Of a DNA stretch of 64,000 nucleotides, positions 53,351 to 55,315 are shown piece after piece (position 1 is the first letter of the stretch; each line of letters opens with the position of its first letter). Under the pieces are notes generated by a model. The model worked only from the letters and a program-made list of their open reading frames with translations. It was not told where the DNA came from and searched no databases. The stretch is taken from positions 19,330-83,329 of the forward strand of contig JAFSSQ010000080.1 of the NCBI GenBank assembly GCA_017450965.1. Direction: 5' to 3'. The DNA comes from Clostridia bacterium. GTDB taxonomy: Bacteria; Bacillota; Clostridia; Oscillospirales; CAG-272. The position numbers and the translations under genes are program-made.

Positions 53351-54799
53351 GTGCTGCCTATCGGAGAAAAGGAGATCGACCCGGCAAAAACGCTGAAGCT
53401 CGGGTATCTGATCACCGCCGCGTTCTTTTTCTGCAACCCCCTTTTTAATCTGATCGACGTCCTTCCGGATTTTATCGGAGCGCTTCTCATCCTCGCGTCT
53501 CTCTCCCGTCTGCGGGATCTCTCTGCGCATCTCGCGTCGGCGCGCAAATGGTTTCTTGCGCTTTTCTGGGTCTCGCTCTCGAAGATCCCCTCATTTGTCT
53601 GGATGTTCCGCATTTTCAGCAGTCATCCGACCGAGCGCACGATCATGCTGCTCTTTACCTTCGTTTACGCCGTGGGGGAAAGCGTCCTGCTCGTTCTGGC
53701 GTTCCGCGATCTCTTTGACGGGATCGTCTATCTCGGCGAGCGGCACGACGGCGCGTCCGCCTTTTCTCTCACCCTAAAGAACAAACAGATCCCCGTCGCC
53801 GCGATTTGCCGTACCTCGATCCTCTCTCTCGTTCTCATCCACGCGTTTTCCGTCGTGCCGGAACTGATCTATCTGATGGGCGACGCCGAGCGTTACGAGA
53901 TGACGGGGTACGTGGCGCCCGAGCACTTCAAGGGCTTTTTTACGCTGTTTGCCACGCTGGCGTCCCTTGCGCCCGCCGTTCTGTTCGTCCGGAGGTTTTC
54001 CCGGTATATCGGCGGGATCCGCCGGGACAGCGTTTTCTGCGCAGCGCTCCTCGCCGACGCCGAGCGTGCGGAACGCGAACAGCCGAAGCAGCGGCTCTAC
54101 CGCCGGTTCGCCTTTTTCTCGGGGCTCGCATCCGTTTGCGCGCTTCTTTCTTTCCGATTCTTTCTCGACGATTTCAATATCTGCCCGGAGATCCTCTTTT
54201 CAGGGCTTCTTCTTGCCGCCGTCCTTTACTGGCATAAAAAGATCGCCGCTTTAGGGAAGGGAACGCTTCTGTTTTCCGCTTCCGCTCTCGTTCTTTCCTG
54301 CGCGGCGCTCTTCTTCGCGATCCGCTTTAATCTTTCCTTTGATTTCTCCGCCGTCGGGCGGGAGTCCTCGGCGAACGGGGCGTTCATTCTATGGGTCGTT
54401 TCCGAGTTTTTCGCCGCGCTTTTATCCTTGATCGCGGTTTTCCTTCTTTCCCGTACCGTTTTCTCCTTCTGCCGAAAGGAGCTGACAACCGAGGGGGAGA
54501 AGGTCGGCAGTTTTTCCTCCGAGGATATCCGTTCTCTCCGCGCGCGAAAGATCCGGCTTTCCGTTTACAGCGTTCTCTACTTCGTTTCCGGCAACGTACT
54601 TCGTCTCTCCCTCGGCGATACCGCTTCCGTCCCGGTCGGCCGCAACGAGTTCGATACCGCCCTCCAGATCTATCTTCCCAAGCTGCAGGGCTACTGGATC
54701 TTTGACGTGGCGCTCTTTATCCTCCTTTCCTCCGCCGCTTTCCTATACTTTGAGGAGATGCGCAGCGATCTGCGGCATAAATATCTGCTTCTTGATTGA
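53351..54799 (+). CDS. Hypothetical polytopic membrane protein (N-terminus resembles the preceding gene)
   Basis: 482 aa with a GTG start 3 nt after the previous stop. ...LGYLITAAFFFCNPLFNLIDVLPDFIGALLILASL... and about 10 hydrophobic segments. Confidence 0.6.
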   Translation: MLPIGEKEIDPAKTLKLGYLITAAFFFCNPLFNLIDVLPDFIGALLILASLSRLRDLSAHLASARKWFLALFWVSLSKIPSFVWMFRIFSSHPTERTIMLLFTFVYAVGESVLLVLAFRDLFDGIVYLGERHDGASAFSLTLKNKQIPVAAICRTSILSLVLIHAFSVVPELIYLMGDAERYEMTGYVAPEHFKGFFTLFATLASLAPAVLFVRRFSRYIGGIRRDSVFCAALLADAERAEREQPKQRLYRRFAFFSGLASVCALLSFRFFLDDFNICPEILFSGLLLAAVLYWHKKIAALGKGTLLFSASALVLSCAALFFAIRFNLSFDFSAVGRESSANGAFILWVVSEFFAALLSLIAVFLLSRTVFSFCRKELTTEGEKVGSFSSEDIRSLRARKIRLSVYSVLYFVSGNVLRLSLGDTASVPVGRNEFDTALQIYLPKLQGYWIFDVALFILLSSAAFLYFEEMRSDLRHKYLLLD

Positions 54800-54824
54800 A
54801 GATTTGCAGCAAAGGGAAGCACAA

Positions 54825-54920
54825 GGTCGGTCTTACGACCGAATGATGTTGACCGGGCTCCGCCCGATCAAACGATGCTTTCGCTGACGCGAAAAACGAT
54901 GCTGCGTCCTTTGCGGACAC
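54825..54920. repeat. Second heptad + mini-hairpin array (AATGATG / AACGATG, single orientation)
   Basis: The elements in order:
- Hairpin ggtcg-gtctta-cgacc.
- AATGATG (54842).
- Hairpin ttgaccggg-ctccg-cccgatcaa.
- AACGATG (54871).
- Hairpin tttcgc-tgac-gcgaaa.
- AACGATG (54895).
- Hairpin gtcc-tttgc-ggac. Confidence 0.75.
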
Positions 54921-54926
54921 AAACAC

Positions 54927-54970
54927 AAAAAAGAAACGCCTTTTGAAAAACAAAAGGCGTTTCTTTTTTT
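54927..54970. terminator. Bidirectional intrinsic terminator
   Basis: aaaaaagaaacgcctttt-gaaaaac-aaaaggcgtttcttttttt. It serves both the plus-strand membrane-protein operon and the minus-strand tRNA pair. Confidence 0.85.
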
Positions 54971-54971
54971 G

Positions 54972-55046
54972 TGGTGACCCGGACGAGAATCGAACTCGTG
55001 TTACCGCCGTGAAAGGGCGGTGTCTTCGCCGCTTGACCACCGGGCC
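54972..55046 (-). tRNA. tRNA-Glu (anticodon UUC)
   Basis: The reverse complement folds as GGCCCGG TG GTC AAGCGGCGAA GAC A CCGCC CTTTCAC GGCGG TAAC ACGAG TTCGATT CTCGT CCGGGTC A CCA. Confidence 0.92.
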
Positions 55047-55070
55047 ATACCGCGGCGGCCGCGGCATACA

Positions 55071-55147
55071 TGGTAGCGGAAGTCGGACTTGAACCTACGA
55101 CCTATCGGGTATGAACCGATTGCTCTAGCCAGCTGAGCTATTCCGCC
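55071..55147 (-). tRNA. tRNA with anticodon CAU (elongator Met, or Ile2 if lysidinylated)
   Basis: The reverse complement folds as GGCGGAA TA GCTC AGCTGGCTA GAGC A ATCGG TTCATAC CCGAT AGGTC GTAGG TTCAAGT CCGAC TTCCGCT A CCA. It has a G1-U72 wobble and one A/G mismatch in the T stem. It is not initiator-like (no C1/A72 mismatch and no 3 G-C pairs next to the loop). Confidence 0.85.
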
Positions 55148-55176
55148 AAAAAACGATGGAAATCGAACGCTCGATT

Positions 55177-55205
55177 ATTATATCATAGCGGTTCCGGTTT
55201 GTCAA
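55177..55205 (-). promoter_or_regulatory. Consensus sigma-A promoter of the tRNA-Met/tRNA-Glu unit
   Basis: Minus strand: TTGACA (55205-55200), 17 nt spacer, TATAAT (55182-55177), about 30 nt upstream of the tRNA 5' end. Confidence 0.8.
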
Positions 55206-55315
55206 CACCGAATTTTTCTTTTTTTCGGGAAAAGAAAAAAACCTTTCAAAGGGCGGCGGATGCATAAATCGGAAGGGAAAATGCATACCGTCTGCAACCT
55301 TTTTCCCGTAACCTC

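Follow-up and report, generated by a model that had tools for sequence, protein, structure and literature searches.

The stretch of DNA analysed here (the window) comprises 64,000 nucleotides from the draft genome of a Clostridia bacterium (contig C60, positions 19330-83329; genome of 2.07 Mb in 89 contigs, GC 0.60), and the metagenome runs that contain it come from the ruminant gut. Our subject is an array of short hairpins separated by a recurring 7-nucleotide word, or heptad, that lies between the CCA end of a tRNA-Glu gene and the stop codon of a convergent open reading frame (ORF) for a membrane protein, which gave no Pfam match (Table 1). An earlier note on this DNA had placed AATGATG at 54842 and AACGATG at 54871, 54895 and 55152, all on the plus strand, and had described four hairpins alternating with the first three of these words over 54825-54921, followed by a bidirectional terminator and two minus-strand tRNA genes; we found all of these features where it had put them, as well as the second occurrence of a GTCC..GGAC stem that it had reported at 33256-33267.

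Table 1. Features of the tRNA-Glu locus (positions in the window) and loci of other genomes that carry a shared Gut-1 array.
Feature	Position	Strand	Description
Membrane-protein gene	53351-54799	+	ORF of 482 aa, convergent to the tRNA genes
Distal flank of the block	54800-54826	-	borders on the stop codon of ORF 53351-54799
Hairpin 4	54827-54842	-	TCGGTC-GTAA-GACCGA, C-G closed, GNRA-type loop
Heptad 3	54842-54848	-	CATCATT (AATGATG on +)
Hairpin 3	54849-54871	-	TTGATCGGGC-GGA-GCCCGGTCAA, 10 pairs, one U.G (C.A on +), cGGAg triloop
Heptad 2	54871-54877	-	CATCGTT
Hairpin 2	54878-54895 (core 54879-54894)	-	(T)TTTCGC-GTCA-GCGAAA(G), cGNNAg loop
Heptad 1	54895-54901	-	CATCGTT (AACGATG on +)
Hairpin 1	54903-54921	-	TGTGTCC-GCAAA-GGACGCA, 7 pairs, one U.G (C.A on +)
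Bidirectional intrinsic terminator	54927-54969	both	19 pairs
tRNA-Glu(UUC)	54972-55046	-	the block sits behind its CCA end
tRNA-Met(CAU)	55071-55147	-	upstream of tRNA-Glu
"Fifth unit"	55152-55176	-	AACGATG (55152) and aatcga-acgc-tcgatt (55161-55176); tRNA-Met leader/promoter-proximal sequence, outside the element
Promoter	55205-55177	-	TTGACA-17-TATAAT, perfect (12/12); -10 box 55177-55182
Loci L041-L052	genomes G146, G082, G114, G167, G085, G043, G165, G090, G130, G089, G010, G048		near-identical ~200-nucleotide Gut-1 double array

Read on the minus strand, hairpin 1 is the conserved head hairpin (TTGTGTCC..GGACACA) of a larger element, the B-type cassette described below. Hairpin 2 consists of six Watson-Crick pairs plus a terminal U.G (C.A on the plus strand), hairpin 3 has homologues in the TTGACC..GGTCAA hairpin of B-type cassettes and also at C62:2077-2115, and hairpin 4 occupies the place of the centre hairpin that leads into GGACACAAA in full copies, a word that is absent here. 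The distal flank has GTGCTTCCyTTT in common with the end of a CATCGT array on contig C62. As a separate observation, the head hairpin together with CATCGTTTTT (54902-54922, minus strand) scores as terminator-like, with 8 pairs followed by a T-run, so that two stacked terminator-like signals lie behind tRNA-Glu within the block.

A fifth unit had been counted between the tRNA-Met gene and its promoter. Its hairpin is closed by an A-T pair and has a GCGT/ACGC loop, unlike the family, and on the minus strand its 5' arm begins at the base right after the -10 hexamer, so that most of this arm lies upstream of the likely transcription start. The heptad is not present at the tRNA-Met leader of three relatives (G005, G006 and G007); G006 is also without most of the stem, and the leaders of G005 and G007 are unrelated in sequence. 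On the grounds of loop and closing pair, promoter position and relatives without the heptad, we rejected this unit as a member of the array: it looks like chance, a coincidence of sequence.

The locus is homologous to the first arm of a tRNA-associated cassette

BLAST searches and manual comparison of the minus strand identified homologues (terminator, GTGTTTGTGTCC-loop-GGACACA, ACATCGT, hairpin and so on) behind tRNA-Gly(ccc) in the relatives G002 and G006, and behind tRNA-Thr, tRNA-Cys and other tRNA genes in further genera, with unit-by-unit correspondence over the head hairpin, a TTTGC..GCAAA-type hairpin and the TTGACC..GGTCAA hairpin. In its full order, this B-type cassette runs from the tRNA through a terminator, the head hairpin GTGTTTGTGTCC..GGAC and three units made of CATCRT/ACATCRT plus a hairpin to a centre hairpin ending in GGACACAAA, after which come ATGATGT/ACGATGT units arranged as a mirror array, then a promoter and, often, a gene of the PF05635 family (23S-IVS/Avd-like, where IVS stands for intervening sequence). 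The exact head motif was found at at least 120 loci in GTDB species representatives, all of them from Oscillospiraceae, Acutalibacteraceae, Ruminococcaceae or unclassified Clostridia, and from guts.

A covariance model of the B-type arm (R1), built from five arms (alignment A2, in which units 2 and 3 are swapped in two rows so that homologous hairpins match up), scored the studied locus at 84.9 bits (E = 4e-20) and found copies outside its training set, at 47-70 bits, in 37 of the 121 genomes of the family. These results bear on the possibility that a common heptamer and ordinary GC-rich hairpins simply happened to cluster in a terminator-rich spacer. Such an explanation would fit the fifth unit and the fact that AACGATG alone is not enriched beside hairpins (see below), but the R1 score, the independent copies found with the same model, the unit-by-unit homology and the agreement of all four loops and closing pairs with the family signature refute it for 54825-54921, where we give it practically no weight.

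Directly behind a tRNA gene of the same sense stand 57 of 115 B-type copies, with 20 different anticodons, and among GTDB representatives the head hairpin and ACATCRT array recur behind 20 tRNA types with terminators that differ in sequence. Exactly three linkers, the modal number, were seen in 76 of 108 B-type copies, the centre GGACACAAA in 67, the mirror array in 87 and a PF05635 gene at most 650 nucleotides away in 21; 17 are solo arms, as at the studied locus. Here, the tRNA-Glu end (54972) is followed in tRNA sense by its own terminator (54969-54927) and then by the array, with the head hairpin, which has one U.G pair, and the three ACATCRT-plus-hairpin units. Neither the centre GGACACAAA nor a mirror array nor a PF05635 gene was found at the locus, and past the third heptad and the fourth hairpin the sequence reaches the stop codon of ORF 53351-54799. 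Since the centre, mirror array and gene are missing, the locus was filed as a truncated B-type member. Altogether, these comparisons show that it is, as far as sequence can tell, a one-armed, gene-less copy, corresponding to the tRNA-proximal first arm of a B-type cassette of the Gut-1 superfamily.

Considering that no reverse-complement heptads occur at this locus, the earlier note had suggested that the unit may act on its own, for example as a processing signal. Action without a reverse-complement partner is borne out by the polarity of the arms (see below) and by the solo B-type copies. The idea of a self-standing processing signal was not supported: the array is absent at the same junction in the closest relatives, and the locus corresponds by homology to a single part of a larger cassette and is without the centre, the second arm and the gene.

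Two further observations concern B-type copies elsewhere. In L128, L131, L146 and other B-type loci, as in the A-type loci L041-L052 (see below), the 5' strand of the first hairpin (CATTTGTGTCC; A-type AAATCCACCC) can pair either locally or with a copy in the centre (GGACACAAATGA; A-type GGGTGGATTT), giving two mutually exclusive folds; this second, centre copy is absent at the studied locus. The B-type arm model matched G207, a relative from the family, at no fewer than 30 places, many of them at the ends of contigs, suggesting that the repeat has undergone a local burst.

Filled and empty sites point to a block that moved with its terminator

The same ORF-to-tRNA-Glu junction is found in G002 (AsnS 99% identical, gene end 96%) and in G006, where it carries two plain terminators and no array, and G005 and G007 keep tRNA-Glu, tRNA-Met and asnS without the array. 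Metagenome runs gave both forms: X1 and X2 contain the filled form, with no difference from the window, and a contig of run X3 departs from the window at 54797 and resumes at 54965, skipping 54798-54964. The terminator at 54927-54969 is 82-84% identical to the one behind tRNA-Gly(ccc) in G002 and G006, where the same terminator is followed by the head hairpin and ACATCGT. Since the junction of the relatives has two plain terminators, the block at 54800-54969, terminator included, was swapped in recently. These filled and empty sites show the array and its terminator as one block, moved or exchanged together behind tRNA genes.

Two known types of mobile system were considered as an explanation and rejected. 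A RAYT/REP-like system (REP, repetitive extragenic palindrome; RAYT, its associated Y1 transposase) was dismissed as PF01797 gave 0 matches in the studied genome (G000) and in G002 and showed no co-occurrence with the arrays (23/68 vs 23/83). A product of the cDNA, retron or diversity-generating retroelement (DGR) kind was dismissed on 0 matches to PF00078 in the same two genomes; as a reverse transcriptase is absent, the cassette is not a DGR.

Wobble pairs and loops place the units on the tRNA-sense strand

The heptads had been listed in plus-strand orientation, which had to be reversed. Three of the four hairpins have C.A mismatches on the plus strand that are U.G pairs on the minus strand, where no A.C is seen, and the minus-strand loops (GCAAA, GTCA, GGA and GTAA) are all of the G..A type and all closed by C-G. 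The minus strand folds at -25.3 kcal/mol as DNA (z -4.3) and -44.1 kcal/mol as RNA (z -4.9), the plus strand at -20.6 kcal/mol (z -2.7) and -33.2 kcal/mol (z -2.2). For family-wide counts, each array was read in the orientation that gives linkers of the ACATCAT/ATTTCAC type. Internal G.U pairs then outnumbered A.C by 13:2 in a model-free count and by 29:11 in the model alignment, G..A loops outnumbered T..C loops by 188 to 11 (364 distinct hairpins), cGNAg triloops cTNCg by 112 to 6, and GNRA loops their complement by 31 to 1; triloops, mostly cGNAg, make up 58% of the family loops. Wobble pairs and loops thus indicate that the units are built for the CATCRTT strand, here the minus, tRNA-sense strand, and not for a plus-strand 3' untranslated region of the membrane-protein gene. 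Gut-1 proper gave 43:1 for G..A loops when read with AUUUCAY linkers, and cUUCg/cUGCg loops on the Rfam strand (for example at 33502-33576 and in L041-L070), so that loops and wobble pairs favour, for Gut-1, the strand opposite its Rfam model (GUGAAAU linkers).

It could still be argued that the array serves gene 53351-54799 from the plus strand, as a hairpin-AAYGAUG stabiliser or as a protein or processing signal, considering that it lies between the stop codon of this gene and the common terminator and that the four hairpins can still form there. We hold this to be very improbable: the plus strand has C.A mismatches in three hairpins and T..C loops and folds worse (z -2.2 to -2.7 vs -4.3 to -4.9), the membrane-protein gene is found in G002 and G006 without the array, and the homologous blocks come after tRNAs, not after this gene.

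Mirror arms fit the same model on the opposite strand, so that each arm is a polar unit by itself, and the existence of a single arm without a mirror speaks against any model in which forward and reverse heptads must pair. Among 128 distinct arms, 98.3% of cells were paired, a share that fell to 70.7% when the arms were shuffled and to 31-58% when they were slid, and both sides changed in 17 of 19 pairs (571 cells), in an alignment whose fitting to the model flatters these pairing figures. Stems differ from copy to copy and heptads are constant. Covariation thus shows hairpins kept by compensatory change, with selection apparently acting on structure.

Four other readings of the units were abandoned. 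A box C/D or k-turn reading of UGAUG gave marginal snoRNA matches (E ~0.6-8) with no CUGA partner and on the wrong strand, and tiny ORFs or start-stop overlaps (ATGA/GTGA) were set aside with heptads falling in all three frames (33189-33393). Self-pairing of the linker (AUGAUGU as a quasi-palindrome, F strand) was given up because loops and wobbles favour the other strand. Finally, a rod of nested forward and reverse heptad pairs was rejected, as word types match within an element and the position-specific pattern does not (L058, L069, L070 and C60:52831), and as mirror arms fit the same model on opposite strands.

Arrays of the Gut-1 superfamily are dispersed and associated with tRNA genes

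Using an intergenic/coding split from rough gene calls and permuted heptamers as controls, we found that the density of AATGATG over the whole genome is 5.8-fold higher outside genes, and that a hairpin stands beside 52 of its 76 intergenic copies versus 6 of 70 coding copies, with ~19% for permuted heptamers. For AACGATG alone, a hairpin adjoins 13 of 61 intergenic copies, which is the control level and no enrichment, so that the degenerate AAYGATG pattern lumps together a genuine word of the family and a rare variant. The expected intergenic enrichment of AA[TC]GATG next to a stem-loop therefore held for AATGATG and failed for AACGATG. A generic scan (at least three linkers with hairpins between them) returned 37 arrays in the genome, at least 30 of them intergenic; 12 of the 37 lie within 350 nucleotides of an annotated tRNA, where 4.2% were expected (p = 2e-8), and several further arrays adjoin tRNA 3' ends at contig edges. 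The view of the earlier note that the motif is dispersed and tRNA-associated is thus supported genome-wide.

Gut-1 was published as a candidate RNA, with no function assigned, from human gut metagenomes, and without a tRNA link or protein partner (PMC2864571). Its Rfam model (RF01706) has 30 matches in the studied genome, of which 8 exceed the gathering score (50 bits); within the window, it gave 70.2 bits at 33502-33576 and 34.6 bits for an ATGATG array at 33188-33260. No match was obtained at 54700-55300 even at E <= 10, nor at this locus in a whole-genome search at E <= 1. With four hairpins and three heptads, the locus does contain at least three short covarying hairpins with a constant 7-nucleotide linker, as Gut-1-like elements do. 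It resembles Gut-1 as a chain of short, sequence-variable, covarying hairpins with a constant heptad, present in gut Clostridia in many copies, and differs from it in its word (CATCRTT, not GUGAAAU/AUUUCAC), in opening with a conserved head hairpin, in being read on the strand opposite the Rfam model and in giving no model match. The motif family is known but unexplained, and the locus is a new truncated variant of it.

Across the order, Gut-1 is patchy and multi-copy (68 of 151 genomes, 43 of 96 genera). The usual, or A-type, design consists of a tRNA-CCA end, a terminator, CAACTAAAT, hairpin-GTGAAAT units, a centre and ATTTCAC-hairpin units, and other lineages use the words ATGATGT/ACATCAT, GTGAAGT/ACTTCAC or GTGATAT/ATATCAC; arrays with ATTTCAY linkers and with ACATCRY linkers have the same loop and closing-pair signature. 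The ~200-nucleotide Gut-1 double array of L041-L052 recurs with hardly any difference in genomes of eight families, where it stands behind different tRNA genes with two or three terminator variants in common. Near-identity across eight families points to a horizontal spread that was probably recent.

Three observations on related repeats of the studied genome may be added. First, a well-formed extra tRNA with an AUG anticodon (called 'His' by ARAGORN), a U1-A72 pair and an encoded CCA lies at 33077-33152, directly ahead of a terminator and an ATGATG/CATCAT double array; the normal tRNA-His(GUG) is on contig C11. Second, another near-identical repeat, made of GTGAAGT-hairpin arrays followed by GTTACAAAAA..GGAGAACTCCTTCC..CCTCCCTCnAGAGGGAGG, occurs with no adjacent tRNA and often at contig ends (C13:51741, C44:14279, C66:9, C67:18051, C71:232, C76:4935, C55:916 and C23:52429). 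Third, the conserved word GGCTDTTTYGTCTGTTAAWCACA takes the place of a tRNA 3' end directly ahead of the terminator/array of a next cassette (window 33440-33475, C62:2055-2078 and C47:9035-9053), and it may be the end at which tandem cassettes dock.

PF05635 genes accompany the arrays

In the studied genome, each of the three PF05635 genes (C19:3942-4253, C28:249-554 and C85:14822-15127) is immediately preceded by a tRNA, its terminator and an array, and among the 30 top PF05635 loci of the order, 19 have a heptad array upstream. Over 151 genomes, 58 had both array and PF05635, 10 the array only, 13 the gene only and 70 neither (odds ratio 31), and heptad words clustered on the PF05635 tree (11 changes vs 16.2 when shuffled), in tests uncorrected for shared ancestry. 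The PF05635 proteins of B-type cassettes form a clade of their own. We propose that the Avd-like PF05635 four-helix-bundle protein is probably the reader of the heptads. A PF05635 copy with a matching xxGATGx-type array is encoded on contig C19, and its protein could act in trans.

Discussion

Our results are consistent with a model in which each arm would act as a polar single-stranded display, whose very stable, C-G-closed G..A mini-hairpins would keep the 7-nucleotide words unpaired, so that the displayed heptads could be read by a sequence-specific partner, most likely the cassette's own Avd-like protein. In the form of DNA, hairpins such as GCGNAGC and GCGNNAGC reach an extraordinary stability, and the same hairpins are much weaker as RNA; DNA mini-hairpins with poor binding of single-stranded DNA-binding protein (SSB) are found at single-stranded priming sites (phage G4, ssiA) and in the single-strand promoters of phage N4 (PMC13037366). 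The cGNAg, cGNNAg and gCNNGc loops of the family fit DNA mini-hairpins better, which puts single-stranded DNA slightly ahead of RNA as the candidate active form, the former at about even odds and the latter a little below. The further stable DNA loop classes cGNNAg, cGNABg and gCNNGc reportedly go back to Nakano et al. 2002 (Biochemistry). In its most specific form, the model would make Gut-1-type arrays, this locus included, polar single-stranded DNA signals and not RNA genes, namely SSB- and nuclease-resistant chains of mini-hairpins that expose a lineage-specific heptad, read on the strand opposite the one modelled by Rfam, as cis arms of tRNA-CCA-end cassettes under recognition by an Avd-like protein; we offer this form tentatively, as a proposal with well under even chances.

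An RNA element of the tRNA operon has to be weighed against such a display. Read-through past the tRNA-Glu terminator would yield a minus-strand RNA with four hairpins and CAUCGUU words acting as a block to 3' exonucleases, a processing platform or a protein sponge of the CsrB/RsmZ kind. The minus strand does fold cleanly as RNA (-44.1 kcal/mol, z -4.9), U.G pairs and GNRA-type loops are compatible with RNA, metatranscriptome contigs contain the conserved Gut-1 double array, and Gut-1 was rated a likely RNA by Weinberg et al. 2010 (PMC2864571). However, the array stands behind a 19-pair terminator with no promoter seen between them, most of the triloops belong to the cGNAg class, which is far more stable in DNA than in RNA, and the low metatranscriptome depth may reflect DNA carry-over. 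The array is also absent in the closest relatives and so is not needed for tRNA-Glu maturation. No RNA run searched contains the studied locus, and the metatranscriptome contigs of a conserved relative break at the repeat borders, so that transcript ends are not readable from them. We consider an RNA element of this kind unlikely.

As for the copy studied here, it is probably a neutral remnant, whose only sure effect is that of a terminator for tRNA-Glu and for the convergent membrane-protein gene; with no centre, mirror or gene, this is the simplest reading. Altogether, we estimate at roughly 70% the probability that the locus is a first B-type arm that replaced the terminators, is built as a polar display on the minus strand and is probably neutral here. 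A number of points weigh against this joint reading. GNRA loops suit RNA as well, and low-depth metatranscriptome contigs contain the conserved Gut-1 array. In the absence of an Rfam Gut-1 match, membership of the locus comes from our own model and B-type homology. Linkage alone would give the co-occurrence of arrays and PF05635 and their agreement on the tree. Neutrality was deduced from truncation and absence in relatives, and solo arms (16%) could function alone. Regarding movement, no direct repeat and no target or tRNA 3'-end duplication was found at the locus, the block could equally have been inserted at the CCA end or have arrived by recombination between tRNA flanks, and no mobility enzyme was identified, PF01797 (Y1) and PF00078 (reverse transcriptase) being without matches in the studied genome.

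Searches of the literature on tRNA-downstream hairpin repeats, PF05635 and Gut-1 returned no published description of the cassette, which shares traits with several known systems. Like REP and the bacterial interspersed mosaic elements (BIME), its arrays consist of small palindromes that lie outside genes, are present in many copies and are asymmetric between strands; a short conserved word flanks them, and they cluster in direct and inverted order, often at gene ends. Unlike REP with RAYT, they are not accompanied by a Y1/RAYT gene (PF01797), either in this genome or in several others rich in arrays, and each unit has a stem of its own, whereas within one genome the REP stems are conserved. 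As in mini-hairpin DNA signals, C-G-closed GNA/GNNA loops on short stems stand beside what would be a strand-specific, single-stranded recognition sequence; the G4, ssiA and N4 signals have one to three hairpins, located in a phage or plasmid origin, compared with arrays of three to five units with a constant heptad at chromosomal tRNA flanks. Integron attC sites are likewise defined by structure, with inverted 7-nucleotide core words and strand-specific folding, and integron cassette arrays also pile up small, often gene-less cassettes at one kind of site, but no IntI-type integrase or attI platform was identified here, the units are much shorter than attC and multimerised, and the target is the 3' end of a tRNA gene. 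Finally, like ORF-bearing 23S rRNA intervening sequences and Avd, full cassettes carry a PF05635 gene and lodge at stable-RNA genes; unlike them, the studied copy is without the gene, and cassettes lie behind tRNAs and not inside rRNA helices.

The locus itself is a minor copy, probably inert, which nevertheless offers a clean natural comparison between filled and empty sites in near-identical genomes. If the arrays are indeed polar single-stranded DNA signals, copies with a single arm, this one among them, could still serve in trans as active sites. For the family as a whole, the 188:11 strand signature of G..A loops and the link to PF05635 make two orphans, Gut-1 and the 23S-IVS/Avd-like proteins, jointly testable.

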